In this document: piece by piece, positions 9,092 to 53,628 of the stretch
Layout: each line of letters begins with the position of its first letter
Position numbering within the stretch: the stretch's first letter is position 1
From: Myxococcota bacterium
Lineage (GTDB): Bacteria; Myxococcota_A; UBA9160; SZUA-336
Direction: 5' to 3'
DNA length: 64,000 nucleotides
Assembly: GCA_965247115.1 (NCBI GenBank)
Contig: CBDFGR010000002.1
Span: 1,536,001-1,600,000, forward strand
Notes under the pieces: model-generated
What the model saw: the letters and a program-made list of their open reading frames with translations, nothing else
What the model was told of the DNA's origin: nothing
Database searches by the model: none
Made by a program: the position numbers and the translations under genes

Positions 9092-9139
9092 AACCCCTAC
9101 CCGATCGGCAACCTGAACCCCTAGCCGATCGGCAACCTG
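9092..9139. repeat. Tandem 2 x 24-bp direct repeat
   Basis: aacccctacccgatcggcaacctg / aacccctagccgatcggcaacctg (one mismatch). Confidence 0.9.
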
Positions 9140-9223
9140 CAAGCGCCGCAATTGCGGCGCGCGCAGCGAAGGCCTGAGCGAAGGTGGGTGGCCCGCGGAC
9201 GCCCGCGGGCCGGGTCCCACAGG
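9138..9223 (-). repeat. REP-like family 1 copy (middle hairpin collapsed)
   Basis: Reverse complement of the TGTGGGACCCGGCCCGCGG...GCGGCGCTTGCA unit. Confidence 0.9.
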
Positions 9224-9226
9224 GAC

Positions 9227-10663
9227 TCACTCCGCGAGGCCACACTCCTTGATCTTCTGGAGGAGGGTCTTGTAGCTCACCTCGAGGATCTTGGCGGCCT
9301 TCTTGCGGTTCCAGTTCGTCTGATACAAAACTTGTCGCAGCGCCCGCCGTTCCGCCGCTCGAGCGGCTCGCTTGCCGATCTCGCGCAGCGACACACCCTC
9401 CTGCGTCGGATCGAGCTCCGGAGCCGCCTCGTCCTCTTCCTCCACTCTCGGGTGGACCGAAGCACTGGTTCCAAAAACCTCGTCCGCGATGACCTCCTCG
9501 CTTTGCAGCACGACGATGCGCTTCAGCATGTTCTCGAGCTCACGCACGTTCCCCGGCCAGGGATACTCCTTGAAGCCCTGCCGGAGGCGCTTGGACAGCG
9601 TGACTTGCTCGCGCCCGTACTCGCGGCTGTACAGCGTCAGGAAGTGGTCGGTGAGAAGCGGGATCTCCTCTGGCCGCTCGCGGAGCGGCGGCACGCGGAC
9701 GTTCACGACGTTCAGCCGGTAATACAGATCCTCGCGGAACGTGCCTTTGCGAACCATCTCCTCCAGGTTGCGGTTCGTCGCGGCCACGACGCGGACGTCG
9801 ACGCGGACCTCGGTGTGGCCGCCGAGCCGTGAGAACTCGCCGTCCTGGAGGACCTGCAGGAGCTTCGCTTGGAGCTTGGGACTCATCTCCCCGATCTCAT
9901 CGAGGAACATGGTGCCACCGCAGGCGACCTCGAACTTGCCCGGCTTGCGGGACGTCGCGCCCGTGAAGGCCCCGCGCTCGTAGCCGAACAGCTCGCTCTC
10001 GAGCAGCTCCTCGGGCAAGGCCGCGCAGTTCACCTTGACGAAGCGCTTCGTGCGCCGCGTGGACAGCTCGTGCACGGTACGCGCCACGACCTCCTTGCCC
10101 ACGCCACTTTCACCGTGGATCAATACGGTCACCCCGGCGTCGCCGATCTGCTCGAGGATCTCCCGGATCCGGTTCATCTGCTCGGAGGCCCAGAGGAACG
10201 TCGCCTTGCCGCGACCGCGTTGGCTCCCGGGCAGCTCGTCCTGGTGGACCTCGGGGGCAGAGTCGAACGCCCGCTCGAGCGCGTCCCCGAGCTCCTTCTC
10301 CTCGAAGGGCTTGTTCAGGTAGTCAACCGCGCCGATGTTCATCGCCTCCACTACGGTGGCCGCCTTGCGCACCACCGAGAGCATGATCACGGGCATGCTC
10401 GGCAAGCGGCGGCGAATCTCGCGCAGCGTGTCCAGACCACCCAGGTCCGGCATCATGACATCGAGGAAGATCGCGTCCGGCTGGGTTTCCCGCTCGAGGA
10501 GCTCTAGCGCCGCGGCGCCGTCCGCGGCCAGCACGACGTCGTATCCCAAAAGAGGCAGCAGGTTCTGCAGGTAAGCCCGAATGGCCTCTGCGTCGTCAAC
10601 GACCATCACCCGTCTGCGCGAGGGAATACTTCGCGGCGCTCCGGACCTAGTCATGGCGGTCAC
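9227..10663 (-). CDS. Sigma-54-dependent response regulator (NtrC family)
   Basis: Intact receiver (VVDD, FLDVMMP, KPF), GESGVGKE, GAFTGA, HTH; start may be ATG 10654. Confidence 0.93.
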   Translation of the reverse strand: MTAMTRSGAPRSIPSRRRVMVVDDAEAIRAYLQNLLPLLGYDVVLAADGAAALELLERETQPDAIFLDVMMPDLGGLDTLREIRRRLPSMPVIMLSVVRKAATVVEAMNIGAVDYLNKPFEEKELGDALERAFDSAPEVHQDELPGSQRGRGKATFLWASEQMNRIREILEQIGDAGVTVLIHGESGVGKEVVARTVHELSTRRTKRFVKVNCAALPEELLESELFGYERGAFTGATSRKPGKFEVACGGTMFLDEIGEMSPKLQAKLLQVLQDGEFSRLGGHTEVRVDVRVVAATNRNLEEMVRKGTFREDLYYRLNVVNVRVPPLRERPEEIPLLTDHFLTLYSREYGREQVTLSKRLRQGFKEYPWPGNVRELENMLKRIVVLQSEEVIADEVFGTSASVHPRVEEEDEAAPELDPTQEGVSLREIGKRAARAAERRALRQVLYQTNWNRKKAAKILEVSYKTLLQKIKECGLAE

Positions 10664-10710
10664 AGCTCGAGTCCATCGCTCACTCTATCGGCGAGGAACT
10701 CCGCGGGCTT

Positions 10711-10991
10711 GTCTTGTGGGACCCGGCCCGCGGGCGGCCGCGGGCCACCCACCTTCGCTCAGGCCAAAGGCCTTCGCTGCGCGCGCCGCTTCCGCGGCGC
10801 TTGCCTTGTGGGACCCGGCCCGCGGGCGGCCGCGGGCCACCCACCTTCGCTCAGGCCAAAGGCCCTCGCTGCGCGCGCCGCTTCCGCGGCGCTGCGCGCG
10901 CCGCTGCATGGGTGGGGACTCCGCAACGGGTTGCCGATTCTTCACGGAATCTGAACTTGGGAATCTGAACTTGGGGACGGTCCTTAATCTT
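10711..10991 (+). repeat. REP-like family 1 doublet (92-bp period) plus conserved tail
   Basis: Units start at 10713 and 10805; the tail ending GAATCTGAACTTGGGGACGGTCCTT is shared with the 40.15-kb locus. Confidence 0.9.
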
Positions 10992-11074
10992 GCACTCGCT
11001 GCTGGCGCGGAAGGCGTGCGCTGGCGCATGCTGTCGCCACAAAGGTGCGGATTTTTGCTGAGGTCGGGGCGTAG

Positions 11075-13072
<1,998 letters not shown>

Positions 13073-13090
13073 TCCGGGTGATGCTTTGGG

Positions 13091-13139
13091 GTTCGTGACG
13101 CCGTCGGAGGGCGGGGACCACTCCTCGCCCTCCGACTCC
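13091..13139. repeat. Palindrome family 2 hairpin between convergent ligA and rsmI (possible terminator)
   Basis: gtcggagggcgggg-accact-cctcgccctccgac; same CCGTCGGAGG...CCTCCGACTCC frame as 53401-53516. Confidence 0.7.
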
Positions 13140-13171
13140 TTGCCCGCGCTTCGTGTTCGGGTCGGGGGAGG

Positions 13172-14026
13172 CTAGTCGGGGGGGTCGGGTTTCTGTGCGG
13201 GGACGTGGGCGAGGATGCTGCGGTAGGCGGTAGTTCTGGAGACGCCCAGCTCCGTGGCCAGCTTCCGGGCTACGTCGCGGACGCTCAGGCCCGAGGCGAG
13301 GAGCTCCTCGATGTGGGGGGCGAGGTTCGTGGGGTCGGGCTCCGCGGCGGAGGCGGGGCCCTCCACGATCAAGGTGACCTCGCCCCGCGTCCGGTCGAGG
13401 TGGACCTCGCCGAGCCGGCCGCGGACGAATTCCTCGTAGAGCTTCGTGAGCTCCCGTCCGATCGCGATCCGCCTCGGGCCGAGCGTACGAAACAGGTCCG
13501 CGAGCGTGTCGTTCACCCGCCCCGGCGCCTCGTAGAATACGAGCGTTCCCGGGAACGCGGCTACGCGTTCCAGTGTCAGGTGTCGCGCGCGGCCTTTGCG
13601 CGGCAGGAAGCCCTCGAACGCGAAGGGCCGTGTCGCAAAGCCACTGCCAACGAGCCCTGCCAGCAGTGCGGACGGCCCGGGAACAGGCACGACCTCTATC
13701 CCGCCTGCAAGGGCGGCGCTCACCAGCGCAAGGCCTGGGTCCGAGAGCAGTGGGGTCCCCGCGTCCGAGACGAGCGCGATCGAGTCGCCGGTCTTCAAGC
13801 GGCCCAGGAGCATCGGGACACGCCGCGCCTCGTTGTGCGCGTGGAGTGAGACGCGCCGGGTCGGGATCTCGAAGCGCTGGCACAGGCGCGCGGTCCGCCG
13901 CGTGTCCTCGCACGCAATCAGCGCGACCTCTCGCAGCGTGCGCAGCGCTCGCACGCTCGCGTCATCTAGATTCCCGATCGGCGTCGCGACCACGTAGACG
14001 CGGCCCGGATTCTCCGATATCGTCAC
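13172..14026 (-). CDS. rsmI: 16S rRNA (cytidine1402-2'-O)-methyltransferase
   Basis: VATPIGNL, CEDTR, SDAGTPLLSDPG, PGPSA, RELTKLYEE; GTG at 14026 with a GGTGAGG SD. Confidence 0.95.
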   Translation of the reverse strand: MTISENPGRVYVVATPIGNLDDASVRALRTLREVALIACEDTRRTARLCQRFEIPTRRVSLHAHNEARRVPMLLGRLKTGDSIALVSDAGTPLLSDPGLALVSAALAGGIEVVPVPGPSALLAGLVGSGFATRPFAFEGFLPRKGRARHLTLERVAAFPGTLVFYEAPGRVNDTLADLFRTLGPRRIAIGRELTKLYEEFVRGRLGEVHLDRTRGEVTLIVEGPASAAEPDPTNLAPHIEELLASGLSVRDVARKLATELGVSRTTAYRSILAHVPAQKPDPPD

Positions 14027-14060
14027 CCGTGCCTCACCCCGGCTCTCGGTCCCGAAGGCG

Positions 14061-14438
14061 CTGGATATTCCCACCGAGCGGAACACGCGAGCACTGGGCC
14101 GCCGCGGCGAGGACATCGCACAGTCCTTCCTGGAGGACCGGGGCTACCGTATTCTCGCACGCAACGTTCACCTCCGGCACGCGGAGCTGGACCTCGTGGC
14201 CCTCGACGGCGACACACTCTGCTTCGTCGAGGTACGACTGCGCAGGAGCCGGCGCTTCGGCAGCGCCGAGGAATCGATCGATAAGCGAAAGCAGCGCCGC
14301 ATCCTTCGCGCCGCCTCGCAGCTCCTGGCCACCCGAAGCCTCCCTCGCTTCCGCAAGATTCGCTTCGACGTAATAGCAATCGACGCCTCCCATCACCCCC
14401 CGGAGGTAGGTCACTTCCGAAACGCCTTCCACCGCTAG
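14061..14438 (+). CDS. yraN: YraN family (UPF0102) putative endonuclease; start codon uncertain or non-canonical
   Basis: LGRRGEDIA..FL...GYRILARN....ELDLVA.....LCFVEVR...RFDVIAI; no in-frame ATG/GTG/TTG upstream of the conserved N-terminal helix. Confidence 0.85.
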   Translation: MDIPTERNTRALGRRGEDIAQSFLEDRGYRILARNVHLRHAELDLVALDGDTLCFVEVRLRRSRRFGSAEESIDKRKQRRILRAASQLLATRSLPRFRKIRFDVIAIDASHHPPEVGHFRNAFHR

Positions 14439-14451
14439 CCGAGCCAACCGG

Positions 14452-14546
14452 GCAAGCGCCGCGGAACGCGGCGCGCGCAGCGAAGGCCGAAGGCCTGAGC
14501 GAAGGTGGGTGGCCCGCGGACGCCCGCGGGTCGGGTCCCACAAGAC
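14452..14546 (-). repeat. REP-like family 1 copy
   Basis: Full unit between convergent yraN and rplS. Confidence 0.9.
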
Positions 14547-14550
14547 AGGT

Positions 14551-14901
14551 CTATTCGGCCGTGTAGCGCTCGCGGATCCGCGCTGCCTTGCCCCGCAGCT
14601 CGCGCAAGTAGAAGAGGCGCGAGCGGCGCACGCGGCCGCGCGACTTGAGCTCGATCCGGACCACGTTCGGCGACTGCAGGGGGAAGACGCGCTCGACGCC
14701 GACGCCGTAGGACACCTTGCGTACGGTGAACGTCTCGTGCATCCCACCCCGATGGCGCTGGAGCACAACTCCCTCGAAGACCTGCACGCGCTCCTTGTCC
14801 CCCTCCGTGATCCGGACGTGCACGCGAACGGTGTCACCGCTGCGAAACTGCGGGTGGTCGGTCCGCATGCCCTCTCTCTCGATCTCTCGAATCTCTCTCA
14901 T
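14551..14901 (-). CDS. rplS: 50S ribosomal protein L19
   Basis: [54 protein letters not shown]. Confidence 0.98.
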
Positions 14902-15626
14902 TTTCCTAACTCCCGGAGGAACTTCCGATCCTCCTCGCTCAAGCGCTCCGTCTCGAGCAGCTCCGGCCTGCGGCGCCGCGTCACGCGAAGGGACTCCTCG
15001 CGCCGAAAGCGTTCGATGCGTGCGTGATTGCCCGACAGCAAGGGCTCCGGGACGGTGCGGCCCCGGAACTCCCGGGGTCGCGTGAAGATCGGGTGCTCCA
15101 GAAGCCCCTCGCTAAAGGTGTCGGCCTGCGGCGAGATGGGATTTCCGACGACGCCGGGCACGAGCCGGGTCACAGCCTCGGTCACGACCAGGGCCGCCGC
15201 CTCTCCGCCCGAAATCACGAAGTCCCCAATTGAAAGCTCCTCGGCGCCCGTCTCCTCGAAGATCCGCTCGTCGAAGCCCGCATAGCGGCCACAGAGCAGG
15301 AGCAGCTGCCGCTCTGCAGCCAGCTCCTGGGCCAGGACCTGATCGAAGAGGCGTCCTCGAGGACCCAGCGCGCAGATCCGCGCACCTGGGAACGCGAGGG
15401 CCTCGACGGCCGCGACGACCGGCTCGCACTTGAGCACCATCCCGTCGCCCCCACCGTAGGGCTCGTCGTCCACGCTGCGCTGCTTGTCCGTGGCGTACGC
15501 TCGCAGGTCGCTGACCCGAACCTCGACGACCCCCTCGCGGCGAGCCGCGCCGAGCAGCGAGCCCTTGAGAAAGTGCTCCACCAGCTCGGGAAAGATGGTG
15601 ACGATGTCGATACGAGGGCCCGCCAT
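14898..15626 (-). CDS. trmD: tRNA (guanine37-N1)-methyltransferase
   Basis: [33 protein letters not shown]. Confidence 0.97.
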
Positions 15627-15627
15627 A

Positions 15628-16209
15628 TCAGGCCTCGTCCTCGATCATTCCTGCTGGAGGATCCAGCCAGATCTCTCCCGCCTCGAGATCCACCCGAACT
15701 AGGAGCTCGCGCAGGGCGGGTACCAGGTTTTGGTGCGAGCCCTTGCACACCACGAGCACGTCGCTGGCGCGCGTCGACCAGATCTCTTCGACTCGCCCCA
15801 GCTCGCTCCCGTCGGGGAGGCGCGCACGCAGACCGATGATCTCGCGCCAGTAGAACTCGCCCGCCGGCAGCGCTTGGATCGCTGCTTCGCGCAGCGAGAG
15901 CCGCGCTCCCTTCCACTCCACGGCCTGCTCGCGGCTGCCGAGTCCCAGCAGCTCGAGATGGGCCCGCGCGTGCCCGGCGCGGCTCGGACTCGCCGCCAGC
16001 GCGTGGCGGATCCGAAAGGGGATCTCGCCGGGGCCGCCCTCGAGACGGACCTCCGTCGCCTCTAGGAGATTCTTGAGATCCTCGCCGTGAAGCTCGACCA
16101 GCAGGCGGCCCTCGCGACCCGTCGGTCGCAGCAGCCACCCGATCTCGACCCACGTGCCGCTCCCAGTGTCGGGCAGGCTCGAAAGCTCACTTGCGCCTCT
16201 CGCAGCCAC
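15628..16209 (-). CDS. rimM: Ribosome maturation factor RimM
   Basis: Position in the rpsP-trmD operon; LPAGEFYW..IIG and PRC-barrel pattern. Confidence 0.9.
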   Translation of the reverse strand: MAARGASELSSLPDTGSGTWVEIGWLLRPTGREGRLLVELHGEDLKNLLEATEVRLEGGPGEIPFRIRHALAASPSRAGHARAHLELLGLGSREQAVEWKGARLSLREAAIQALPAGEFYWREIIGLRARLPDGSELGRVEEIWSTRASDVLVVCKGSHQNLVPALRELLVRVDLEAGEIWLDPPAGMIEDEA

Positions 16210-16234
16210 GTCCGCACAACCCGATCGCGCTCGC

Positions 16235-16504: not shown

Positions 16505-16571
16505 ACTGGAGTCCTCACGGAAGGTCCGAGGCGCGCCGCGAGGCACCCTCGGAAGAAGTGAAGTGGGCGAA

Positions 16572-16598
16572 ATTATAGGCGCTTTGCGCTCGAGTCAA
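16572..16598 (-). promoter_or_regulatory. Sigma-70-type promoter for the rpsP operon
   Basis: Minus strand TTGACT-N15-TATAAT (perfect -10, short spacer). Confidence 0.6.
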
Positions 16599-17134: not shown

Positions 17135-17723
17135 GCACGGCCGCCTCCAGGATCGCGTCGAAGCGGATCGCCCCCTCGCGCAGGAGACGCAGGTTCCCGT
17201 CGGGATCGAGTGCAACGACGCTCGACGGGGCAAGATTCCCGGCCGTCCCCGCGACGACTGGCAGCTCCTGGCCGAAGAGCTCGTGAACCTCGCAAGCGGT
17301 CCCACATGGCGCTTCCCCGCTGCGATTGCAGCTCGTCGCGGCGATCGGCCGCTCGTACAGCCGCGCCAGGCGAGCGGCGACCGGGTGCGAGGAGCACCGA
17401 AAGCCGACACCGAACTCTGTAGCCACCTGCGCGAACGCGACGTCGACCTGTTGCAGCACCAGGGTGAGGGGACCGGGCCAGAAGCGCTTGGTCAAAAGAA
17501 GCGCTGGTTCGGGAAGGCTCGGGAGCCAGGCCTCCAGCGCGCTCGCGTCCCGGACCAGCACCGAGAGCCCGCGCTCGGGCGCCCGCCCCTTGAGGACTTG
17601 GAGTGCCTCGAGCGCGCTCGGCTCGAAGACGTCGACACCGAGGCCAAAGACGGTCTCGGTGGGATAGGCCACGACCCGCCCAGTCCCGAGGAGGCGAACG
17701 GCCTCGTCCGCAGAAACGATCAA
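17124..17723 (-). CDS. tsaC: Threonylcarbamoyl-AMP synthase (YrdC/TsaC)
   Basis: VAYPTETVFGLG, LKGR, FWPGPLTLV, TSCNRSG, LREGAI; TTG start overlaps the purD stop. Confidence 0.93.
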   Translation of the reverse strand: MIVSADEAVRLLGTGRVVAYPTETVFGLGVDVFEPSALEALQVLKGRAPERGLSVLVRDASALEAWLPSLPEPALLLTKRFWPGPLTLVLQQVDVAFAQVATEFGVGFRCSSHPVAARLARLYERPIAATSCNRSGEAPCGTACEVHELFGQELPVVAGTAGNLAPSSVVALDPDGNLRLLREGAIRFDAILEAAVLSR

Positions 17724-19291
17724 CCCGCGTGGTCCCGGAGCGCCCGGAGCGCAATGTCGCTCCTGAGCTGGGCACCCTCGAACTGGATGCGACGCGCGGC
17801 GGCGTAGGCACGATCGCGGGCGGCGGCGATGCTGGCACCGCGGGCCGTGATGCCGAGCACGCGCCCACCTGCCGTCTCCCAGCGACCGCCAGAGCGGCGG
17901 GTGGCGGCGTGAAACACGAGAACCTCCGGCTCGCTCTCGAGCTCCTCGAGCCCCCTGATCTCTCGCCCCACCGGGTAGCTGCGCGGATAGCCCTCGCTCG
18001 CCAGCACGACGCACACGGCCGGATCCCCGAAGACGGGGCCTGCGGGACCCGGCGCGCGAGCGGTCGCGCGCCACCCACCTCCGCTCGGCTTCGCCTCGCT
18101 GCGCGCGCCGCTATCCGCGGCGCTTGCACCTGCGGGACCCGGCGCGCGAGCGGTCGCGCGCCACCCACCTCCGCTCGGCTTCGCCTCGCTGCGCGCGCCG
18201 CTATCCGCGGCGCTTGCACCTGCGGGACCCGGCGCGCGAGCGGTCGCGCGCCACCCACCTCCGCTCGGCTTCGCCTCGCTGCGCGCGCCGCTATCCGCGG
18301 CGCTTGCACCTGCGGGATCCGGCGCGCGAGCCGCTTGCAGAGGGAGCTGGCCCTGGGCCGCACCCACGAGCAGCGGGACGAGGTCGGACTCCATTCGGTA
18401 CAGCAGAGGCTGCGTCTCCGGGTCGCCGAAGCGGACGTTAAACTCCACCACAACGGGCTCGGCCTCGACGACCATCACGCCGACGTAGAGCACTCCCCGA
18501 TAGGGCGTGCCCTCCGCACGCAGGCCGTCGAGCGTGGGCTGAACGATCTTCTCGATGATTCGCTGCTCCACGTCGGGGCTCACAACCGGGGCCGGGGAGT
18601 AGGCGCCCATGCCTCCTGTGTTCTCGCCGCGGTCACCGTCTAGCGCGCGTTTGTGATCCTGCGCAGCGGCCAGGCACACGCTGCGCTCCCCGTCGGAGAT
18701 CGCGTAGTACGAGGCCTCCTCGCCAACGAGCCAGTCCTCGATCACGACCTCGGCACCGGAGTCGCCGAAGCGCCGCTCGCGCATGATCTCCGAGAGGGCA
18801 ACGCTCGCCTCATCCGGACCCGCGCACATGTACACGCCCTTGCCAGCCGCGAGCCCGTCCGCCTTCACGACAAGCGGCCCGCCGCGAGCGCGCACATACC
18901 GCTCCGCTTTGTCTGGGTCCGCGAAGCCCTGGTAGGCGGCAGTCGGGATGCCGTGGCGCTGCATGAAGGCCTTGGCGAAGCTCTTGCTGCCCTCAAGGCG
19001 AGCCGCGGCCGCGCCGGGCCCGAATACCGCGATCCCGGCAGCCTCGAGGTGATCCGCCAATCCCGCGACCAGGGGAACCTCGGGACCGACGACCACCAGC
19101 TGAACGTCCTCGCGTTTCACGAGCTCCACGACGGAGTCGGGGCTGGCCAGCCGCGCCTCCGCACAGCGGCCGTGTCGCCCGATGCCGTCGCTGCCCGGGG
19201 CGCAGAGCACCTCGTCGACCAGCGGGCTGCGGCCGATCGCCCAGACCAGCGCGTGCTCACGACCTCCCGAGCCCAGAACCAGGACGCGCAT
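17720..19291 (-). CDS. purD: Phosphoribosylamine--glycine ligase carrying an in-frame repeat insertion
   Basis: GSGGREHAL, LEGSKSFAK, KADGLAAGKGV, QDHKR, NTGGMGAYSP, EFNVRFGDPETQ, GGRVLG; 523 aa. Confidence 0.96.
   Translation of the reverse strand: MRVLVLGSGGREHALVWAIGRSPLVDEVLCAPGSDGIGRHGRCAEARLASPDSVVELVKREDVQLVVVGPEVPLVAGLADHLEAAGIAVFGPGAAAARLEGSKSFAKAFMQRHGIPTAAYQGFADPDKAERYVRARGGPLVVKADGLAAGKGVYMCAGPDEASVALSEIMRERRFGDSGAEVVIEDWLVGEEASYYAISDGERSVCLAAAQDHKRALDGDRGENTGGMGAYSPAPVVSPDVEQRIIEKIVQPTLDGLRAEGTPYRGVLYVGVMVVEAEPVVVEFNVRFGDPETQPLLYRMESDLVPLLVGAAQGQLPLQAARAPDPAGASAADSGARSEAKPSGGGWRATARAPGPAGASAADSGARSEAKPSGGGWRATARAPGPAGASAADSGARSEAKPSGGGWRATARAPGPAGPVFGDPAVCVVLASEGYPRSYPVGREIRGLEELESEPEVLVFHAATRRSGGRWETAGGRVLGITARGASIAAARDRAYAAARRIQFEGAQLRSDIALRALRDHAG
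18039..18331 (+). repeat. Intragenic tandem array of REP-like family 1 variant, 3.25 x 90 bp
   Basis: Identical units at 18039, 18129 and 18219 plus a 23-bp partial unit at 18309. Confidence 0.97.
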
Positions 19292-19299
19292 CACTCCTC

Positions 19300-19420
19300 C
19301 TTGTGGGACCCGCGCGCGGGCGGCCCTCCCGCGGGTCAACGACCCGCGGGCCGCTGACGGCTTCCCACCTTCGCTCAGGCCTACGGCCTTCGCTGCGCGC
19401 GCCGCTATGCGGCGCTTGCA
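19300..19420 (+). repeat. REP-like family 1 copy with expanded first stem, abutting the purD SD
   Basis: TTGTGGGACC...CCCACCTTCGCTCAGGCCTACGGCCTTCGCTGCGCGCGCCGCTATGCGGCGCTTGCA. Confidence 0.88.
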
Positions 19421-20592: not shown

Positions 20593-20670
20593 GCCCCAGA
20601 CTGTAGGGGCGCCCGCAAGTGGTGTCTTGCGTTTGAACTTCCACACTGCATCGCTTACCGTCGAAACTGG

Positions 20671-34119: not shown

Positions 34120-34218
34120 CTTGCGGGTCTTGCGGGATCCGGCGCGCGAGCGGTCGCGCGCCACCCGCTCTTCGTTCGCCTACGGCTCACTGCGCACCGC
34201 GCCTACGGCGCGGCTTGC
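34120..34218 (+). repeat. REP-like family 1 copy (purD-type stem 1) between convergent genes
   Basis: GGCGCGCGAGCGGTCGCGCGCC stem; duplicated CTTGCGGG head. Confidence 0.85.
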
Positions 34219-34227
34219 GGGGGTCCG

Positions 34228-40150: not shown

Positions 40151-40545
40151 GTCTTGTGGGACCCGGCCCGCGGGCGGCCGCGGACCACCCACCTCCGCTC
40201 AGGCCTACGGCCTTCGCTGCGCGCGCCGCTTCCGCGGCGCTTGCCTTGTGGGACCCGGCCCGCGGGCGGCCGCGGGCCACCCACCCCCGCTCAGGCCTAC
40301 GGCCTTCGCTGCGCGCGCCGCTTCCGCGGCGCTTGCATGGTTGCCAAGCCCCGCAGGGAATTGCCGGTTCTCCACAGAATCTGAACTAGGTGGGAATCTG
40401 AACTTGGGGACGGTCCTTCGTCTTAACTTCTTTGGACGAGGTTGGAACTTCTGGTCACTCTGGCGGGACTCTTGAGCACAGTCGTTTATTTGGGCGTCGT
40501 TGCGGTCGTCTCAGGCGGAGTAGGTTCTGATTCAGTGACCGTCCC
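40151..40545 (+). mobile_element. REP-like family 1 doublet plus conserved tail plus ~140-bp segment bounded by inverted GGGACGGTC (non-autonomous element candidate)
   Basis: Units at 40153 and 40245; tail shared with 10.9 kb; GGGACGGTC at 40407-40415 and its reverse complement at 40537-40545; lower-GC interior. Confidence 0.6.
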
Positions 40546-43509: not shown

Positions 43510-43566
43510 CACCCACGAAGCCCTTCGTCGCATCCGGAGCCTGGACGTCCTCCGACGTCCTCCAAC

Positions 43567-45246: not shown

Positions 45247-45256
45247 AGCCCCTATT

Positions 45257-46585
45257 CTACCCAGCTCTGGACTGACGGTGGCTACCGGGTCCCGGTTCGC
45301 GTCGTCCGCACCAGGCGCAGAAGCGCCAGAACTCGCTAGGCACCGGCCAGCGACAACGCGGGCAGCGGGCGGGAAGCTCCGGGTGGCTCCACAGGCGGGC
45401 CGGCTTCTGCTTGCAGACCGGGCAGTAGCGCATGAAGGGCCGCAGCTGTCCGTCGCAGCCGCGACGGCTACAGGCTCGCGTGGCCCTCGGATCCCGGCGC
45501 GGCTGCCGGCCGCTGCCCTCGAAGCGTCCAGCGAAGCACCACGGACACGCGGTCCAGTCCGCCTGGACGCCGCGCTCGCACCAGGGACAGATCAGTCCCG
45601 CGGGGGTGATCTCCGCGAACGAGTTCTCGCCGCTTCCGCACCAGGGGCAGAACGGCATCTCCTCGGCCATGGCACCGTCGCAGCGATGGCAGCGATATCT
45701 CATGCGCAGCGAGCTGCCGTGCAGCCTGCGGAAGAGCTCCGCCTGCACCACCAGGGGAGAGGGTGCGGGAGCGGGGGCCCGTCGTCGCTTGCGCGGCCGG
45801 ACGGGCGATACCGCGCGCTCGGCCTTCTCGAGCGCGCGCTGAAACGCGATCGCGTCCGCGTAGCGACGGCGCGGCTCGAACTCGGAGGCCTTGCGGAGTA
45901 CGGACATCAGGGGCTTGGGCACCCTTGACACAAAGCGCCTGTAGCCCGGAGGCGGCCATTCGAAGGGCCAGCTCAACAGCTTTCCGCCGAGCAGCTCATA
46001 GGCGATCAGGCCCAGGGAGAAGACGTCCGAGGAGAGGGTCGGTCGGCCGTACGCTTGCTCCGGAGCCATGTACCCGAGCGTGCCCGCCTCGGTCAGCGAC
46101 CGCTCCGGACCGGCGAAGCGGGAGACGCCGAAGTCTCCCAGTGCCGCGCGGCCGTCTGCGAAGATCATGACGTTCTCGGGCTTCACGTCGCGATGCATCA
46201 GCCGACGCTCGTGGGCGTAGGCCAGACCGGCCGCCACGTCGCGCACTACGCGCAGTGCCACGCGTCCAGAGCGCCGCGCGCCCGCATAGGTCGCCAGCGA
46301 GGTTCTCGCGAGCTCGGTGACCAGGACGAAGTGTCCCTCCATCCAGTCTGCATTGCGGATGGCAACGATGTTCGGGTGGGAGAGACGGCTCGCGATGCGC
46401 GCTTCGCGCTCGATCTCGGCGCGGCCATGCTGACCGACAACGGCAGACTGAATGATCTTGAGCGCGACACGACGCTGCTCGATGCTGTCGCGCGCCGCCC
46501 AGACGTCCGCCGCGGAGCCCCTTCCGATCCGCCGCTCGAGACGATACTTGCCGAGGCGGACCCCCTTGCGCAGTACCGCGGGCAT
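45257..46585 (-). CDS. Hanks-type Ser/Thr kinase with C-terminal zinc-ribbon array
   Basis: [25 protein letters not shown]; eight Cys pairs in the C-terminal part. Confidence 0.9.
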
Positions 46586-46619
46586 GCGCCTCCTTACCAA
46601 CTGGCCCGGTCCGCGCCGA

Positions 46620-47099
46620 TCAGGCGTAAATCAGCCGCGTGAGAAACTCGGCTACGCAGGCCGGCTTCGGCTCACCTTCGATCTCGACGCTGACCTTCTG
46701 TTTGAGCTGCAGCGTGTTGGGCGCGACCTCGTCGGCCGAGACGAGCTCCCTGCTGGCCCGGACCCGGGAGTCCACCTTGACGGGGAAGGGGAAGCGGACG
46801 CGGTCGAGCCCGTAGTTCACACCCATGACCATCCCCGCGTAGGCCTCAGGAGCCGCATTGGGGACACTCTGCTGGAGAAAGGGCAGCAGCGAGAGGGTCA
46901 GAAAGCCGTGAGCGATCGGAACCTTGTACGGCGACAGCTGCGCACACTTCTCGGGGTCGACATGGATGAACTGGTGGTCGCCGGTGGCATCGGCAAACAG
47001 GTTGATCTGACTCTGATCCACCACGTGCCACTCGCCCGGACCTTCGATTTCGCCGACACGGGCCTGGAAGCGCTCCGACGCCTGCTCGAGCTTACTCAC
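46620..47099 (-). CDS. MaoC-family dehydratase
   Basis: FADATGDHQFIHVD, IAHGFLTLSL, NYGLDRVRF. Confidence 0.92.
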   Translation of the reverse strand: MSKLEQASERFQARVGEIEGPGEWHVVDQSQINLFADATGDHQFIHVDPEKCAQLSPYKVPIAHGFLTLSLLPFLQQSVPNAAPEAYAGMVMGVNYGLDRVRFPFPVKVDSRVRASRELVSADEVAPNTLQLKQKVSVEIEGEPKPACVAEFLTRLIYA

Positions 47100-47119
47100 T
47101 GGGTTCCTCCTCTGGCCGT

Positions 47120-47210
47120 GTCTTGTGGGACCCGGCCGCGGGCGGCCGCGGCCACCCACCTCCGCTCAGGCCTTCGGCCTTCGCTGCGCGCGCGCATTCG
47201 CGCGCTTGCA
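47120..47210 (+). repeat. REP-like family 1 copy (shortened stem 1, altered stem 3)
   Basis: GGCCGCGG-GCGG-CCGCGGCC; GCGCGCG-CATT-CGCGCGC. Confidence 0.9.
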
Positions 47211-47305
47211 GGGTGGTCCTGGGTCATCACCAGAGAAGGTTAACCACGAGGATGGGTGTGGTGCCAGCCTGGCCCCAACTTGGCGCTAGCGGGTATGCTC
47301 GGGAC

Positions 47306-47659
47306 ATGGGTGCGCTTGTGCTTTATCACAACCCTCGCTGCTCGAAGAGTCGCGCTGCCCTGGCACTGCTCCAGGGACGTGGGGCCGCGTTCGAGCTGGT
47401 CGAGTATCTCGAGACGCCGCTGAGCCGGAAGGATCTGGAGAACCTTCAGCGCAAGCTCGGGTTGCCCCCCTCGCAGTGGGTTCGCCGCAAAGAGGAGGCG
47501 TTTCGTGAGGCTGGGCTGTCCGCCGAGAGTACGGAGGCCGAGATCCTCGACGCCATTGCTGCTCGCCCGATCCTGCTCGAGAGGCCCATTCTCGTGCGCG
47601 GCGAGCACGCCGCCATCGGTCGACCCACCGAGCGGCTGCTCGACCTCCTGGACGAGTAG
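47306..47659 (+). CDS. ArsC/Spx family reductase
   Basis: YHNPRCSKSR, LLERPIL, IGRP. Confidence 0.9.
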   Translation: MGALVLYHNPRCSKSRAALALLQGRGAAFELVEYLETPLSRKDLENLQRKLGLPPSQWVRRKEEAFREAGLSAESTEAEILDAIAARPILLERPILVRGEHAAIGRPTERLLDLLDE

Positions 47660-47704
47660 TAGGATAGAAAAAAGCCAAGCGCGGTTCGGCGCGAGAGGAG
47701 CAAC

Positions 47705-48154
47705 ATGGACGAAGAGCGCGTCAAGGAGATCGTCAACGACATGAAGTTCTTCAGCGGGAAGGGCGAGATGGCGATCGACGAGATCGCGATGATCCAGCCC
47801 GGCCTCGCCCGGATCATGCCGGAGATCGGCAACCGTGCCTGGAAGCTCTACTACGCTGCCAAGGCCGAGAACTGGCCCAACGCGATGTACCAGTGGAAGG
47901 AGGCCAAGAAGCTGTTCGAGGTCGCAGCATACACGCGGCCCAAGTACGAGGAGGCGATCGAGGAGTATCTCCGCGACGACTGGGCGCTGCTGGAGGTCGC
48001 GATCGTAGACCAGAACCTCGAGAAGTTCCTCGAGAGTTTCGACCAGTGCGTGGACTCCGCCAACGCGTGGCACGAGAAGAAGGACAAGCCCTTCATCCGG
48101 TGGAAGGTCCCCGATCAGCCCCCTCCCGACCTCGACCTGACGCCGCGAAAGTAA
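47705..48154 (+). CDS. Hypothetical helical protein resembling cytochrome-c'-like proteins but without CxxCH
   Basis: GAGAGGAG SD; QPGL..IM...KLYYA....NW..A.Y...ANAWH...FI..K.P..PP. Confidence 0.7.
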   Translation: MDEERVKEIVNDMKFFSGKGEMAIDEIAMIQPGLARIMPEIGNRAWKLYYAAKAENWPNAMYQWKEAKKLFEVAAYTRPKYEEAIEEYLRDDWALLEVAIVDQNLEKFLESFDQCVDSANAWHEKKDKPFIRWKVPDQPPPDLDLTPRK

Positions 48155-48157
48155 GGG

Positions 48158-49273
48158 CTAGACGAGCGAGCGCTGCCTCAGCTTGAGGCGCTCGTCGTAC
48201 GCACCACGCACGAGCTCGGCATCTCGGATGAAGTATTCGAGCTCCGAGAGCAGCAGCGCCTGAGGACCGTCGCAGAGCGCCTCCTCGGGCTTGGGGTGGA
48301 CGTCTACAAGGACCAGATTCGCTCCGGCAATGATGCCCTGCGCTGTCGCGTGGACGATGTCGAGCAACCCGTCGGGTGCGGTTTCGCGCTTTCCGACCGA
48401 GTGCGAGGGATCGATGCAGACCGGAAGCCGCGTGAGTCGCTTCACGACGGGCACGTGTGCGAAGTCGACGAAGTTGCGGTGGGGGTCGCCCAGGTTCGAC
48501 TTCATGCCTCGCAAGCAAAAGATGATCTTGTGGTTGCCCCCCGAGGCAACGTACTCGACCGCGTTCAGCGATTCCTCGAGCGTGATGCCCATCCCGCGCT
48601 TGAAGAGCACGGGGTAGTCCTGCTGCGAGCCGACGACCTTGAGCAGCTCGAAGTTCTGGGCGTTACGCGTGCCGATCTGCAGCATGACGCTGGTCGGCTG
48701 TCCGGCGGCCTGGAGCGCGTCGTGGATCTCGTCCACCTGCCCGGCGTGACAGACCTCCATGGAGATCACGCGGATCCCGTACTTGCCGGCGATGTCGAAC
48801 AAATAGGGGAGGCACTCCGCGCCGCGACCCTGGAAGTCGTAGGGACTCGTGCGCGGCTTGTAGGCACCGGCCCGCGTGGTTTCGATGCCGAGCTGGTGCA
48901 GCACACGGAACGTGGCCTCCACGCTCTCCGGGGTGTCCACGGCGCACAGTCCTGGGAAGACGTGGAAGCTCTCCTGGCTGAAGTGGACGCCGTTGTGCTC
49001 GAAGCCGACGGCCTCGCCCTGTCCTTCGTGACGCCCGATCGAGCGGTAGCGCACGCGGATCCGGATCACGCGCTCGACCGCAGAGAACTCGTCGAATTGC
49101 TCCTCCGAGACAGACCCGGTCGAGCCAAGCAGGTAGACCTCGGTCAGCGCGCGTGTCGCACCCTGGATCGCACGTACCTCCGTACGCACGTCTGGGTAGC
49201 TCTCCGCCATCCGCACGACCCGGTGCACTTCTTCCGAGTCCGGGAGAACGTCCGATTTCATCACGATGATCAT
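48158..49273 (-). CDS. aroF: DAHP synthase, type I-beta with N-terminal regulatory domain
   Basis: GLCAVD, RAGAYKPRTSPYDFQG, QIGTRNAQN, KRG, DPSHS, HPKPEEALCDG. Confidence 0.9.
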   Translation of the reverse strand: MIIVMKSDVLPDSEEVHRVVRMAESYPDVRTEVRAIQGATRALTEVYLLGSTGSVSEEQFDEFSAVERVIRIRVRYRSIGRHEGQGEAVGFEHNGVHFSQESFHVFPGLCAVDTPESVEATFRVLHQLGIETTRAGAYKPRTSPYDFQGRGAECLPYLFDIAGKYGIRVISMEVCHAGQVDEIHDALQAAGQPTSVMLQIGTRNAQNFELLKVVGSQQDYPVLFKRGMGITLEESLNAVEYVASGGNHKIIFCLRGMKSNLGDPHRNFVDFAHVPVVKRLTRLPVCIDPSHSVGKRETAPDGLLDIVHATAQGIIAGANLVLVDVHPKPEEALCDGPQALLLSELEYFIRDAELVRGAYDERLKLRQRSLV

Positions 49274-49485
49274 GGCTCGCGAAATATATCCGCTTTCAGG
49301 AGCCGCGTCTCTTCGCGCCGCGTCTTTGCGCAGTCCGCCCAGATCGGACTCTGACGATATCCCGTCAACGGGGGAGCAGGTCTGCCGGGATTCCGTCGGT
49401 AATATCTGCCGGGCGGAAAGTCCCGCCTGGCTCGAGCGTGTCCACCGGCGCTGCTCCGTGCCCACCCCGGACCCACGCCGCGCGG

Positions 49486-49501
49486 AGGCACACGGGTTGC
49501 A
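49486..49501 (+). promoter_or_regulatory. Sigma-54 promoter upstream of the helical-repeat gene/activator pair
   Basis: AGGCAC-ACGGG-TTGCA (GG-N10-GC). Confidence 0.65.
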
Positions 49502-52000
49502 GTGCGCGACGCCGTGTTGTGTCCCGGTTCCAAGTTGCCCCCCCTCGCGGGACCCGGTACCTGTCTTGCGGGACTGGGCCCGCGGGCGGCCGGGGGCTAC
49601 CCGCCTCCCCGGAGACCTAGGGCCTTCGCTCTTCGCGCTGCCATCGGGGCGTTTGCGGGGGGTCTGCGCAGGCTCGGCCCGGTACTGTCACTCGCACTCG
49701 CGCTGTCCGGAGCTGACCACGCGCTTGCGCAGGAAGCGCCGACGCTGATCGATTCGAAGGTCTGGCAGGAGCGCTTCCGGGAGTGGGTCGAGCAGCAACT
49801 CGTGCGCGATCAGATCGACGCCGCCGCGGAGAACCTGCCGACCCTGGATCGGCGGCTGGTCCTGCGCGTGCTCGACCGGCTCGAAGACGACTTGCTCATC
49901 TCGCTGCGCGAGGTGCCCTCGCTGCCAGAGGACGCGCTGGTGAAGATGCTCGCGCGAGGGCTCGACGGCCCCGCGTTGGTCTCGGCGCGACTCTTCGCCG
50001 ACGGCCAGACGGCGCAGGCTCTCGAGATCCTCGGGACGCCCGAGCTCGCCGAAGACGCGCCGACCCAGCACCTGCGGGCCCAGCTCCTTGACAACCTGAG
50101 CGCGGACCTGCCGCCGCTCTATCGGCTCCAGGTGATCGAGCTCTACCGCGAGGCGCTGCGTCTCGACGGGGAGCTGCCCCAGGCGAATCGCGCCCGCCTG
50201 CGCATCGGTCAGATCTATCTCGAGCTCCGTTTCGCGAGAGAGGCACGTGCGGCACTGCGCACGCTCCTGGAGAGAGACCTCCCTGAGTCCTACCGAAGGG
50301 CGGCCCAGCTCTCGCTGGCGGAGGCTGCCTACGTGGACCGCGCTCCGGTTCGCGCGATCGAGCACCTCGCGATGATCGACCTGGAGGCGGTCAGCCCCGC
50401 GACTCGCGACTGGGTCTCCCGGCGGCACGCGGACAGTCTCGTCAAGCTGGAGCGCTACGGAGAAGCGATTGCGCTCTACCGGCGCGTCCTCCGCGCCGAC
50501 GTACCCCTCGAGCCGCTGGTCGCGGTGAACCTCGCGTTCGCCCTGTTACACACGCGCGAGTGGCGCGCCGCTCCCGAGCTCCTCGATCCGATCGTCGCGG
50601 GAACCGCCTCGCGTCCCACCCGCGCGATCGCCGCCATGCTGCTAGCCCGCGCGCAGCGCCGCCTCGTGTCATTCAAGGAGGCCTCTCAGTCCGCCACTCG
50701 CGCGACGGAGCTCGCTCCCGGTACCGAGGTCGCTGCGCTCGCGGCCGTCGAGACGCTCGAGGCGGAGCGTGCTCTCCACAACGACTCGGTCCCGCTTCCC
50801 CCCGGGACAGCTCCTCTCGTGCAGAGCACGACCTTCATTCCAGCGGTCGGACTGCTGACCTATCTCGTACAGGCTGCTCCCAGTCCCGGAGATACCCCAC
50901 AGGAGCAGAGACGCCGTCTGGGCTCACTCGCGGTCACGCTTCCGCCCGGCATCGTTCAGCACCTGGCCTACACGGATCTGGTTACCTGGCTCGCCAGCGA
51001 CCTTGCAAGAATCGCAACCCGGCAGATCGAGCCAGACCCCTCGGTTCTCGCGGACACGGGTCGCTACCTGCGACCCCAAACGATGGACGAAGACGTCCTT
51101 CTGCTCGCGATCGAGTCCCAGATGCTGGCGGGAGATCACAATCGCTGTGCCCGCTGGGCACGCACGCTGCAGCGCCGTGAGCCGCGGCCGCTGCGCCGCG
51201 GCATCGGAACGTGGCGCGAGGTCACGTGTCGTCTGCCTGGCGCAGAAGACGTCAATGCGGCGCGGCGCATGATGGTGCTCGCCGACAGTGGCGCCGCGGG
51301 GCCATTCGCGCTGGCCGTCGCCGCGGTCGCGGCCGAAACGTACGTGCAACGGGGAGACCTCGAGCGCGCGGCTCTCACCTTCGCGCGAGCGGTCGAATCG
51401 TTCTCGGAGCCGACCTTCGTGGGACCTGTGCTGCTCCGCCTCGGGGAGATCGAGGTCGCCCTGGGCCAGGATGCGCTGGCTCTTAACCGGCTGTCACGAG
51501 GACTCACGCTCTCGGACGCCCCGGACGCCGCCTCCGAACCCTTTCGCAAAGCGGGGATCGTCGCACTGGCCCGGGTCGCCGCCCGCAGCGAGAAGCCCGA
51601 GCGCGCGCTGCGTCTCCTCCAGGCCGAGCACGACCGCGCGGAAGACTGGTGGGCAGAGGCGTACGCCTACCTACTCCTCCACACCGGTGCCACGGATCCG
51701 CCAAAAGGCGACAGCCTCTTCGCCCGTGGCGCTCGCGCCCAAGACGAGATCAAGACCATGCGCGCGAGGCTACAACGCGTACAACGAAGACGAGCCCGCA
51801 ACCGCCGCCCCCCACACAGCGGCCCCCCCCCTCGCAACCTAGCCCCACCTCCGCCAGCAAACGCGTCCACCGCACGACACGGCAACCCGCAAGCGCCGCA
51901 AAGCGGCGCGCGCAGCGAAGGCCGCAGGCCTGAGCGAAGGTGGGTGGCCCGCGGCCGCCCGCGGGCCGGGTCCCACAAGACGCGGTCCCACAAGACATGA
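49502..52000 (+). CDS. Large TPR-like helical-repeat protein, probably exported; start uncertain; both ends include repeat-derived sequence
   Basis: Ala/Leu-rich helical pairs (ARLRIGQIYLEL, LLRLGEIEVALG); signal-like RRLGPVLSLALALSGADHALA; lies before the flagellar activator. Confidence 0.7.
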   Translation: MRDAVLCPGSKLPPLAGPGTCLAGLGPRAAGGYPPPRRPRAFALRAAIGAFAGGLRRLGPVLSLALALSGADHALAQEAPTLIDSKVWQERFREWVEQQLVRDQIDAAAENLPTLDRRLVLRVLDRLEDDLLISLREVPSLPEDALVKMLARGLDGPALVSARLFADGQTAQALEILGTPELAEDAPTQHLRAQLLDNLSADLPPLYRLQVIELYREALRLDGELPQANRARLRIGQIYLELRFAREARAALRTLLERDLPESYRRAAQLSLAEAAYVDRAPVRAIEHLAMIDLEAVSPATRDWVSRRHADSLVKLERYGEAIALYRRVLRADVPLEPLVAVNLAFALLHTREWRAAPELLDPIVAGTASRPTRAIAAMLLARAQRRLVSFKEASQSATRATELAPGTEVAALAAVETLEAERALHNDSVPLPPGTAPLVQSTTFIPAVGLLTYLVQAAPSPGDTPQEQRRRLGSLAVTLPPGIVQHLAYTDLVTWLASDLARIATRQIEPDPSVLADTGRYLRPQTMDEDVLLLAIESQMLAGDHNRCARWARTLQRREPRPLRRGIGTWREVTCRLPGAEDVNAARRMMVLADSGAAGPFALAVAAVAAETYVQRGDLERAALTFARAVESFSEPTFVGPVLLRLGEIEVALGQDALALNRLSRGLTLSDAPDAASEPFRKAGIVALARVAARSEKPERALRLLQAEHDRAEDWWAEAYAYLLLHTGATDPPKGDSLFARGARAQDEIKTMRARLQRVQRRRARNRRPPHSGPPPRNLAPPPPANASTARHGNPQAPQSGARSEGRRPERRWVARGRPRAGSHKTRSHKT
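49563..49656 (+). repeat. Degenerate REP-like family 1 copy
   Basis: gtcttgcgggactgggcccgcgggcggccgggggctacccgcc...ggccttcgct...gcgtttgc. Confidence 0.75.
51889..51996 (-). repeat. REP-like family 1 copy with duplicated head, inside the 3' end of the upstream ORF
   Basis: Full unit plus a repeated ggtcccacaagac, directly followed by ATGA. Confidence 0.9.
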
Positions 52001-53367
52001 TCGGGTACCTGGATCTCGGCGAGCAGGGCCTCGTGCGGGCTGCACTGGAACGCAGCGGGCACCCCGTGCGCGAGCTCGGCAACCGCGACGCCGCAAGTGG
52101 CGCGCTCGTCTCTGGTCGCCTCGACGCGCTCGTGATCGAGGCCGCAGCCATCACGGAGCCCGAAGAGACTCTGCTCGAGCAGGCACGGGCGCACTCGGTC
52201 CCGACACTGGCCATAGGCCGTGATCGCAGCGTGGGCGCGGCGGTAGCAGTGTTGCGTGCGGGCGCTACGGACTACTTGGCGTCTCCCTTCGAGTACGAGA
52301 GCCTGCTCCGCTCCATCGACAGGCTGGTCGACGAGTCCAGCACAACGGCCATCCTGAGTCCGCCCACGCCTCTAGTGAGCGGCGATCCCGCCGTGCACGC
52401 AACGCTCGAGCTGCTGCGGTCCGTCGCGGCCAGCGAAGCGACGATCCTGATCGAGGGCGAGAGCGGCACGGGAAAAGAGCTCCTCGCCGCGCTCGTTCAC
52501 GCGTCATCTCCGAGGCGCGAGCGGGAGATGGTCTGCGTCAACTGCGCCGCCCTGCCCAGCGGTCTCGTCGAGAGCGAGCTGTTCGGGCACGAGCGGGGCG
52601 CGTTCACCGGCGCCATCGGCCGCTCCATCGGCAAGTTCGAGCTGGCGCACGGAACCACGCTCCTGCTCGACGAGATCGGTGAGCTGGAGCTACAACCACA
52701 GGCGAAGCTCCTCCGCGTGATCCAGGAACGGCAAGTACAGAGGGTCGGAGCCAGGAGACCCCTCCAGGTCGACTTCCGGATCGTGGCGACCACGAACCGC
52801 AATCTGGAAAAGGACGTGGCGGCTGGACGCTTTCGCGAGGATCTGTTCTACCGGCTGAACGTCGTCCCGGTGCGCCTCGCACCACTGCGCGATCGTCCCG
52901 GTGACGTGGCACTGCTTGTCGAGCACTTCTTGAGGCGGCACGCGGAGGGGGGCCGCCCGGTTCCGTCGCTCCCAGCCGAGACCCTTCGACTGCTCGAGGA
53001 ACACAGCTGGCCGGGTAACGTACGCGAGCTCGAGAACGTCATCGAACGACTCGTGCTGACGCGAGGCGACCGCGCGGTGCGTCCAGAGGATCTCGCCTTC
53101 GTCGTACCGCCGGACCGGCCTCGAAACGAGACTTCTGAACGACCCGCCTTCCGAACCATCCGCGCAATGGAGCGCTGGCTCATCGTCGACACCCTGACCC
53201 GTCTACAGGGAAACCGGACGCAAGCAGCGCGCGAGCTCGGCATCAGCCTGCGCACGCTGCGCAACAAGATCAGAGAGTACGAGATCACCGAACCGTCCAC
53301 CCTCCCCCGAACCGGCACAGCCCGCCCCCCCACCACCCAGGAGCGCACTGCAAAGGCAGAAGCCTGA
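51997..53367 (+). CDS. Sigma-54-dependent activator with pseudo-receiver domain (FleQ/FlrA/FlrC-like flagellar regulator)
   Basis: GESGTGKE, GAFTGA, WPGNVREL, HTH; directly upstream of the flgB sigma-54 promoter. Confidence 0.88.
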   Translation: MIGYLDLGEQGLVRAALERSGHPVRELGNRDAASGALVSGRLDALVIEAAAITEPEETLLEQARAHSVPTLAIGRDRSVGAAVAVLRAGATDYLASPFEYESLLRSIDRLVDESSTTAILSPPTPLVSGDPAVHATLELLRSVAASEATILIEGESGTGKELLAALVHASSPRREREMVCVNCAALPSGLVESELFGHERGAFTGAIGRSIGKFELAHGTTLLLDEIGELELQPQAKLLRVIQERQVQRVGARRPLQVDFRIVATTNRNLEKDVAAGRFREDLFYRLNVVPVRLAPLRDRPGDVALLVEHFLRRHAEGGRPVPSLPAETLRLLEEHSWPGNVRELENVIERLVLTRGDRAVRPEDLAFVVPPDRPRNETSERPAFRTIRAMERWLIVDTLTRLQGNRTQAARELGISLRTLRNKIREYEITEPSTLPRTGTARPPTTQERTAKAEA

Positions 53368-53402
53368 ATGAAAGGTGGTGCGGCCCGTTCGCGACTCGCC
53401 CC

Positions 53403-53513
53403 GTCGGAGGTCGGGATCATCCCCCGCAGGACCTCGCTACTCAGCTGGACCCGCGTCGAGCACGCCTCGGACACCGCTACACGGTCCTGCGGGGGATGAT
53501 CCCGACCTCCGAC
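53403..53513. repeat. Perfect 31-bp inverted repeat with 49-nt spacer (palindrome family 2)
   Basis: 53403-53433 is the exact reverse complement of 53483-53513. Confidence 0.95.
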
Positions 53514-53535
53514 TCCCAGCCACCACCAGCAACCC

Positions 53536-53628
53536 TGCAAGCGCCGCGCGAGCGGCGCGCGCAGCGAAGGGCATAGCCCTGAGCGGAGGTGGGTGGCCGC
53601 GGCCGCCCGCGGCCGGGTCCCACAGGAC
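53536..53628 (-). repeat. REP-like family 1 copy
   Basis: Shortened stem 1; stem 2 variant AGGGC-TAT-GCCCT. Confidence 0.9.

Follow-up and report, generated by a model that had tools for sequence, protein, structure and literature searches.

Repetitive extragenic palindromes (REPs) of the GTAG type, with the BIMEs and REPINs they form and the REP-associated tyrosine transposase (RAYT) that goes with them, are described as abundant and intergenic, arranged in inverted dimers, tandems, and mosaic clusters, and placed next to stop codons (PMC8266576, PMC6006769, PMC3733652). REPs without their gene are also known and have been ascribed to gene loss (PMC6006769). What allows REP-like repeats to multiply where a cognate RAYT is lacking is an open question, and the family described here is a sharp test case. 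It is a hairpin repeat of about 92 nucleotides (nt), seen in a 64,000-nt window of a Myxococcota bacterium (assembly GCA_965247115.1, contig CBDFGR010000002.1, positions 1,536,001 to 1,600,000), and it has all the REP traits just listed. By the features tested, it works like a REP but stands outside the GTAG, CGTC/SRM, MITE, IS91, and Rfam families. A mobile repeat folded as single-stranded DNA (ssDNA) is very probable, and the family is judged to be a new, orphan REP-like one, with spread as ssDNA likely.

How widespread is it? A profile hidden Markov model (HMM) built from 12 window copies has 15 matches at 11 loci in the window, and the first-pass annotation, which had reported about 15 copies at these 11 loci, proved correct at every coordinate. 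Genome-wide, the HMM finds 192 copies at 159 loci in the source genome (5.17 Mb; G000), 10 on contig C1, 63 on C2, and 119 on C3, with a median nearest-neighbor identity of 94.7%. Among 61 relatives, a 201-nt query of the element is matched in 32 and a short invariant core in 47, with 0 to 371 matches per genome versus 0 to 4 for the reversed control (copy counts are HMM plus pattern matches). The maximum of 371 belongs to G010, a 100% complete genome. A stricter core pattern matches an estimated 2,700 GTDB genome stretches, of which the 80 titles listed are Myxococcota, Myxococcales, or Deltaproteobacteria, plus some labeled Spirochaetales, Proteobacteria, or “bacterium”; about 9,000 metagenome stretches match as well. 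No Rfam covariance model, Flavo-1 and Acido-Lenti-1 included, matches the element, and RF01687 is matched only in G013, a genome without the core (138 candidates scored per genome). The literature searched, which did not extend to subscription journals or bioRxiv supplements, describes the family nowhere. Genes adjoining the copies are housekeeping genes such as ligA, rsmI, trmD, alr, and fliI. As a separate observation, 8 of 24 core loci in five low-copy genomes (7 places: L119, L120, L128, L130, L133, L134, and L137/L138) have a tRNA gene no more than 70 nt away; elsewhere, 1 of 53 tRNAs in G000 is within 400 nt of a copy, and tRNA proximity is seen for 12 of the 293 wide-set copies.

In the orientation chosen by the first-pass annotation, the element begins with a head, (G)TCTT, continues with three hairpins, H1, H2, and H3, and ends in a tail, CTTGC, with a looser 8 to 9 nt. 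Its ends are imperfect direct repeats (CTTG[CT]), not terminal inverted repeats, and there is no consistent target duplication. In 172 of the 192 copies, H1 fits a parse with a GCG[GT] loop and at most one mismatch; its basal stem is GTGGG/CCCAC in 129 of these, GCGGG/CCCGC in 22, and mixed in 8, and above it come an ACCC/A internal loop and an upper stem of 8 to 9 base pairs, perfect in 134 of the 172. The H2 triloop, read on the opposite strand, is GNA in 102 of 150 G000 copies and TNC in 4, always closed by C-G, and the flanking bases are GA and GA in 159 of 164, compatible with tandem sheared pairs. H3 has AA opposite GC in 143 of 159 copies, and H3 inserts of at least 7 nt are perfect hairpins in 150 of 191 cases, with 39 different arms (shuffled mean, 15.6). 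In 292 copies from other genomes, the letters left free by the search pattern give 258 GNA and 0 TNC triloops and complementary stems in 288; GA/GA and AA/GC were fixed by the pattern in this set and so are no evidence there. Because H1 is missing or swapped for other modules in many relatives, the family core is H3 plus H2. This conserved core is predicted to fold as two hairpins on one strand, a stem with the AA/GC mismatch followed by one that has tandem G·A/G·A pairs and is capped by C(GNA)G, and the third stem-loop is lineage-variable.

Is the folded form DNA or RNA? Mini-hairpins of the C(GNA)G, or GCGNAGC, type are described as very stable in DNA and far less so in RNA (PMC13037366), and E. 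coli TnpA-REP is described as requiring an AA-GC bulge (PMC8266576). Since the GNA tips favor DNA and the AA-GC bulge is as in the E. coli REP, folded ssDNA is the probable substrate. The GNA strand is the better DNA folder of the two in 149 of 153 copies.

The compensatory stem changes reported by the first-pass annotation are real. The quoted stem variants are present, and in a cross-genome alignment of 35 sequences, pairing holds in 94.2% of cells versus 87.0% in shuffles, both sides are altered in 11 of 25 pairs, and the covariation score reaches 0.220 versus 0.093 ± 0.008 (at most 0.056 for slid controls), although the score is not a probability because the 35 sequences are related. Stem covariation in palindromes can also come from template switching. 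Of the three-hairpin layout, the stems stand, but a fourth helix, the basal stem of H1, had been missed. The GTGG that was taken for a REP-like foot is paired in that stem and covaries to GCGG with its partner. Loops said to vary freely do not, as the H1 and H2 loops attest, and selection on structure rather than sequence was too strong a claim: structure is conserved, but the unpaired GA/GA and AA/GC are the most conserved letters. What holds of the proposed “ssDNA- or RNA-structured” element is that it is non-autonomous, REP-like, and mobile, with the balance leaning toward ssDNA.

Set beside described systems, the family differs from GTAG-type REPs in having no free GT[AG]G foot, its GTGG being on the non-GNA strand; in having three to four helices over its length versus the 20 to 40 nt of a REP; in its tandem G·A pairs and GNA tips; and in the lack of a REPtron in G000, where none of 16 Y1 genes plus a further one, L001, is flanked by the repeat (the exception, G017 with 4 of 4, is discussed below). 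With the E. coli y/z2 REP it shares the AA/GC mismatch on one strand (PMC8266576). The CGTC-tagged REPs, or NTS-SRM repeats with the GIY-YIG nuclease SsnA, are also transposase orphans with ssDNA hairpins and intragenic copies (PMC3733652, PMC11893778), but the present element has no CGTC tag, the SRM pattern occurs in 0 of 192 copies, and high-copy genomes show no small GIY-YIG gene. Rickettsia palindromic elements, as summarized in PMC3733652, likewise insert into conserved protein genes and keep the frame, but they differ in sequence and lineage, and the copies here are mostly intergenic. The d(GCGNAGC) mini-hairpins of ssDNA phage and plasmid priming sites (PMC13037366) resemble the C(GNA)G tips on one strand, and a collapsed form of the core lies between inovirus genes; this likeness is in sequence only, and here there are hundreds of dispersed chromosomal copies. 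The ends and the lack of a consistent target duplication separate the element from miniature inverted-repeat transposable elements (MITEs), and the absence of a TnpB zinc finger in 5 genomes and of a Y1_Tnp match in G010 separates it from a PATE or IS200-IS605 derivative.

The element is mobile, and copies have been gained at new sites, as filled and empty sites in relatives attest. The 3.25 copies reported at 18039 are present and, in addition, lie in frame inside purD, which is 288 nt longer than in G002 and 291 nt longer than in G001 by DNA alignment, the insertion falling in a linker between residues ~315 and ~425. One contig of sequencing run X4, at a depth of 7, joins 18048 to 18319 and so drops exactly three purD units; apart from this shortening, the contigs of 7 public runs contain no clean empty allele. 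A dnaE2 insertion shared by G000 and G002 is missing from G001, in both copies, and from G014. The empty dnaE2 alleles have CTTGCG at the head junction, whereas the tail side has lost about 12 to 15 host nt to the insertion. Both these alleles and the empty site at 20619 already hold CTTGC(G), and CTTGC is present in 2 of 4 informative empty sites. Insertions of 30 to 96 residues are retained in PurD and DnaE2, and further clear in-frame copies lie in genes for an AddA/RecB-like helicase and an ImuB/DinB-like polymerase and in one read by eye as cheW; all of these cases, purD and dnaE2 included, are read on the GNA strand. In PMC3733652, dnaE2 and helicase genes are listed among the hosts of intragenic REPs. 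Overall, 11 of 150 loci are inside called genes (by a simple gene model, some from wrong starts or ends), and about 139 are intergenic.

Intergenic copies often sit flush with genes. In G000, a co-oriented stop codon lies within 5 nt of the head in 46 of 81 cases and of the tail in 1 of 78, and behind stop codons the sense strand is mostly non-GNA. Stop types at heads (TAG 21, TGA 16, and TAA 8 of 45) are at genome frequency, which rules out stop-codon type as the target sequence. Tail sides are within 2 nt of stops in 11 of 26 cases in G010 and 24 of 111 in the wide set; since both ends abut stops there, the flush positions point to trimming plus selection rather than to a target word. Pairs within 1.5 kb are tail-to-tail in 22 cases and head-to-head in 3, and there are 19 adjacent tandems.

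The two ends behave differently. The head-side flank is common to another locus in 34 of 151 full copies, and by eye these are all whole or truncated element copies; tail-side sharing occurs in 75 of 151 and covers a continuous range of 15 to 324 nt, tandem and inverted partners included. In front of 44 of 153 copies stands a partial head (8% background), the same tail-side linker is found in 47 of 173, and a terminal repeat of a second family lies within 130 nt in 48 of 173. This pattern, with a fixed head end and a tail end that varies, is read as one-ended copying from the head.

What could move such an element? The favored explanation, still a tentative one, is a REP-like, non-coding mobile repeat that is copied as folded ssDNA by a tyrosine (HUH-type) nuclease acting in trans. 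The GNA strand would fold when the DNA is unwound, and an HUH enzyme acting from elsewhere would read its unpaired letters and join the fixed head to a target, often one offering CTTG(C). The copy would end loosely on the tail side, with neighboring DNA carried along and target DNA sometimes replaced. Selection would then retain copies that leave genes unharmed, either directly behind a stop codon or placed in frame within a linker, and the enzyme gene may be unlinked, lost, or transient.

A number of results weigh against this explanation. No enzyme tracks the family, be it a RAYT, IS91, IS110, TnpB, GIY-YIG, DUF559, inovirus Rep, or reverse transcriptase, and the window, as the first-pass annotation had it, contains no mobilizing enzyme. 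The RAYT that it suggested finds no backing as the demonstrated handler, as Y1 genes neither flank the repeat in G000 nor track the family across the 61 genomes. G000 has 6 Y1 genes by Pfam and, by tblastn, 16 plus L001; all 16 are at least 2,774 nt from any copy. Of the 28 high-copy genomes (at least 10 core matches), 11 have a RAYT-profile match, as do 12 of the 33 low-copy ones (rho 0.11, p = 1.0 by Fisher's test; kin genomes are non-independent and several are incomplete), which leaves 17 high-copy genomes without one. G010 is among these, and searches there for Y1 (Y1_Tnp and RAYT profile), reverse transcriptase, IS110, TnpB zinc finger, DUF559, and inovirus Rep found none; it has one long-frame GIY-YIG gene and three IS91-type genes, with ends unlike the element. 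A single link in favor comes from G017, where the core lies ~180 to 350 nt upstream of all 4 Y1 genes and 6 of ~14 hairpin-type matches are near them, but it may be a single event inherited by four paralogues, because a true core occurs within 700 nt of 0 of 69 further Y1 loci (drawn from 70 of 256 matches). In addition, the element has no free GTAG/GTGG foot; purD and the G002 copy opposite window position 9100 have no exact CTTGC at their empty sites; the contrast between head and tail in stop adjacency is specific to G000; replication-strand bias is not visible in 200-kb bins (GC skew is weak, and there are three contigs); and the strand signature is deduced from sequence.

The Y1 genes themselves merit a brief description. 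Those of G000 (16 loci, e.g., C3:117662-118369) form a Myxococcota-type Y1/HUH family with more than 4,400 homologues that Pfam sees weakly, and many copies are preceded by a shared promoter-like block and transposon remnants. At one G017 locus (L600, C52:21000-27000), 273-nt direct repeats (93%) that hold the core enclose a Y1 gene together with the gene of a small membrane protein, possibly a cargo cassette.

Might the partner instead be an ssDNA nuclease or recombinase of another or new class, such as an Ssn-like GIY-YIG, IS110, or IS91-type Y2 enzyme? This is unlikely. It has some appeal in that IS91-type genes occur in G000, G002, G010, G011, and G019, and IS91 uses a CTTG target (CTTG/GTTC) with one-ended transfer. 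There is also a precedent: the CGTC repeats, without a transposase in PMC3733652, were later tied to SsnA (PMC11893778). But IS91-type Y2 genes are also found in low-copy genomes, and the resident elements have ends unlike the repeat, often a CCTATCC-like motif that does not resemble the head. The sole GIY-YIG match in each of G000, G002, and G010, in a frame of ~650 to 670 codons, is read as UvrC, no small single-domain GIY-YIG gene was seen in high-copy genomes, and the SRM pattern is absent, as mentioned. IS110 is present in only 1 of 5 genomes tested and does not track the family, the TnpB zinc finger is in 0 of 5, and DUF559 is in none of the other high-copy genomes tested. The neighbors are no more telling. 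Among 124 small neighbor genes there is no transposase or site-specific nuclease family, clustering over ~300 loci gives housekeeping families only (G000 neighbors below 300 residues were read by eye), and genes with the repeat on both sides are ordinary ones.

Rather doubtful is the idea of a host priming or restart signal with no dedicated transposase. The GNA strand would act like the complementary-strand origin of an ssDNA phage, synthesis would run from the head to a variable distance past the tail, and integration would follow by host recombination or repair at CTTGC. This fits the fixed head, the variable tail, and the missing enzyme, and mini-hairpins are known in the G4 and ssiA priming sites (PMC13037366). 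A viral echo of the core exists as well: its collapsed form is in 9 IMG/VR viral stretches (reversed control, 0). Three carry Zot, an inovirus gene, one of them with an HUH Rep and one with an ssDNA-binding protein, and a fourth is laid out like an inovirus but has no Pfam support. The motif is intergenic in all four and lies on the gene strand, which in inoviruses is the packaged strand. This echo appears to support ssDNA folding, with convergence possible, as GCGNAGC units can arise convergently. However, the other five stretches are tailed-phage regions that lie upstream of a DUF5710-like gene, as Pfam confirms in one case, viral matches to the full two-hairpin pattern number 0 to 1, inovirus Rep (PF23343) is in 0 of 61 genomes, and a copy number of 0 to 371 among close kin is hard to explain by housekeeping proteins alone. 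Decidedly doubtful is the related notion that the core is a filamentous-phage-type ssDNA origin motif turned selfish chromosomal repeat without its own transposase, which host priming would copy from the fixed head, dragging along variable downstream DNA and pasting it behind stops and into linkers. Plasmid and phage BLAST gave nothing meaningful. In two tailed-phage contigs (L230 and L178), a Betaproteobacteria-1 motif (RF02932) is located ~180 nt away from the collapsed core.

A host regulatory or chromosome-structure signal, acting at mRNA 3′ ends or in protein binding and spread by gene conversion and local duplication, with covariation from template switching, is improbable. The stop-codon positions, the mosaic modules, and the difference in tandem number in purD between strains would suit it, but copies are gained at unrelated sites and within essential genes, the mismatches that template switching would erase are the most conserved letters, and the sense strand behind stops in G000 is mostly non-GNA. 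Least probable is an RNA intermediate, transcribed and retro-inserted with one precise and one truncated end, for although it would account for the one fixed and one variable end, the positions behind all three stop types at genome frequency, and the tRNA adjacency in low-copy genomes, the GNA tips favor DNA, no Rfam family matches, and reverse transcriptase is in 1 of 5 other high-copy genomes and far from the copies in G000.

As a test case, then, the family offers 371 copies in a complete genome without a detectable Y1 gene, a small invariant core ready for use as bait, and exact filled and empty coding alleles. Should the core prove to bind an ssDNA enzyme of a new kind, or to prime host replication, a new route of spread would be defined; otherwise, this is one more REP-like family specific to its lineage, though its DNA-fold signature is unusually clear. 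The window loci are collected in Table 1.

Table 1. Copies of the hairpin element and associated features in the window. Strands refer to the element read head first; the GNA loops are on the other strand.
Feature	Position	Strand	Remarks
Full copy, H2 collapsed	9138..9225	-	Head abuts stop codon of sigma-54 regulator gene 9227-10606
Two copies in tandem	10711..10897	+	
Terminal repeat of second family (TIRYT-type, GGGGACGG), tail side of tandem pair	10968..10983	+	
Full copy behind rplS	14451..14546	-	Same gap in G002 has a copy in opposite orientation
purD, open frame with insertion in linker preceding C-terminal domain	17720..19291	-	
Three 90-nt units, in frame within purD	18039..18308	+	Skipped by one contig of run X4
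Remnant with internal deletion, head joined to tail	18309..18339	+	
Variant copy, H1 branched	19300..19420	+	17 such variants in G000
Empty site	20619..20638	+	Copy in G002, joined after GTCTTGC
Full copy of short-H2 subfamily	34127..34219	+	G002 without copy
Tandem pair, head behind stop codon of HAD hydrolase gene	40151..40337	+	
Extension on tail side, made up of conserved linker and TIRYT-type miniature element	40338..40545	+	First terminal repeat 40401-40416
Full copy	47120..47210	+	None seen at corresponding G002 site
Decayed copy	49563..49657	+	Partly common to G002
Full copy 51888-51981, truncated head 51982-51997 before it	51888..51997	-	
Full copy	53536..53628	-	Third repeat family (53404-53512) on tail side

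Two companion families appear in the table. The second, with 102 copies in G000, is a TIRYT-type miniature element whose interior is conserved over ~110 nt; it was not found in 380 kb of G010, where the hairpin family is densest. Its GGGGACGG-type inverted repeats bracket L001 (G000:C3:2177117-2178064), a Y1 gene with a helix-turn-helix (HTH) tail that is in a different frame from the catalytic core. For both reasons, its place in the second family and its split frame, L001 was rejected as the cognate enzyme of the hairpin element. The TIRYT, or TnpA-Y1 subclass 2.1, description (PMC3733652, PMC6006769) thus fits this tail-side family, which is separate from the hairpin element. The third family, with 29 exact 12-mer matches in G000, is a long inverted repeat that is frequently found next to the hairpin element, at its tail, and it causes a weak MIR5084 match in Rfam. 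Elsewhere in the window, three other strains have a 56-nt insertion at 43544-43549 that G000 does not. Finally, G000:C2:1056930-1057145 (L683:430-645, minus strand), beside groEL, encodes a 71-residue bacterial histone-fold protein, so assigned from an NF043032 match (E 1e-8, below the cut-off) and a best PDB match to an archaeal-type histone fold.

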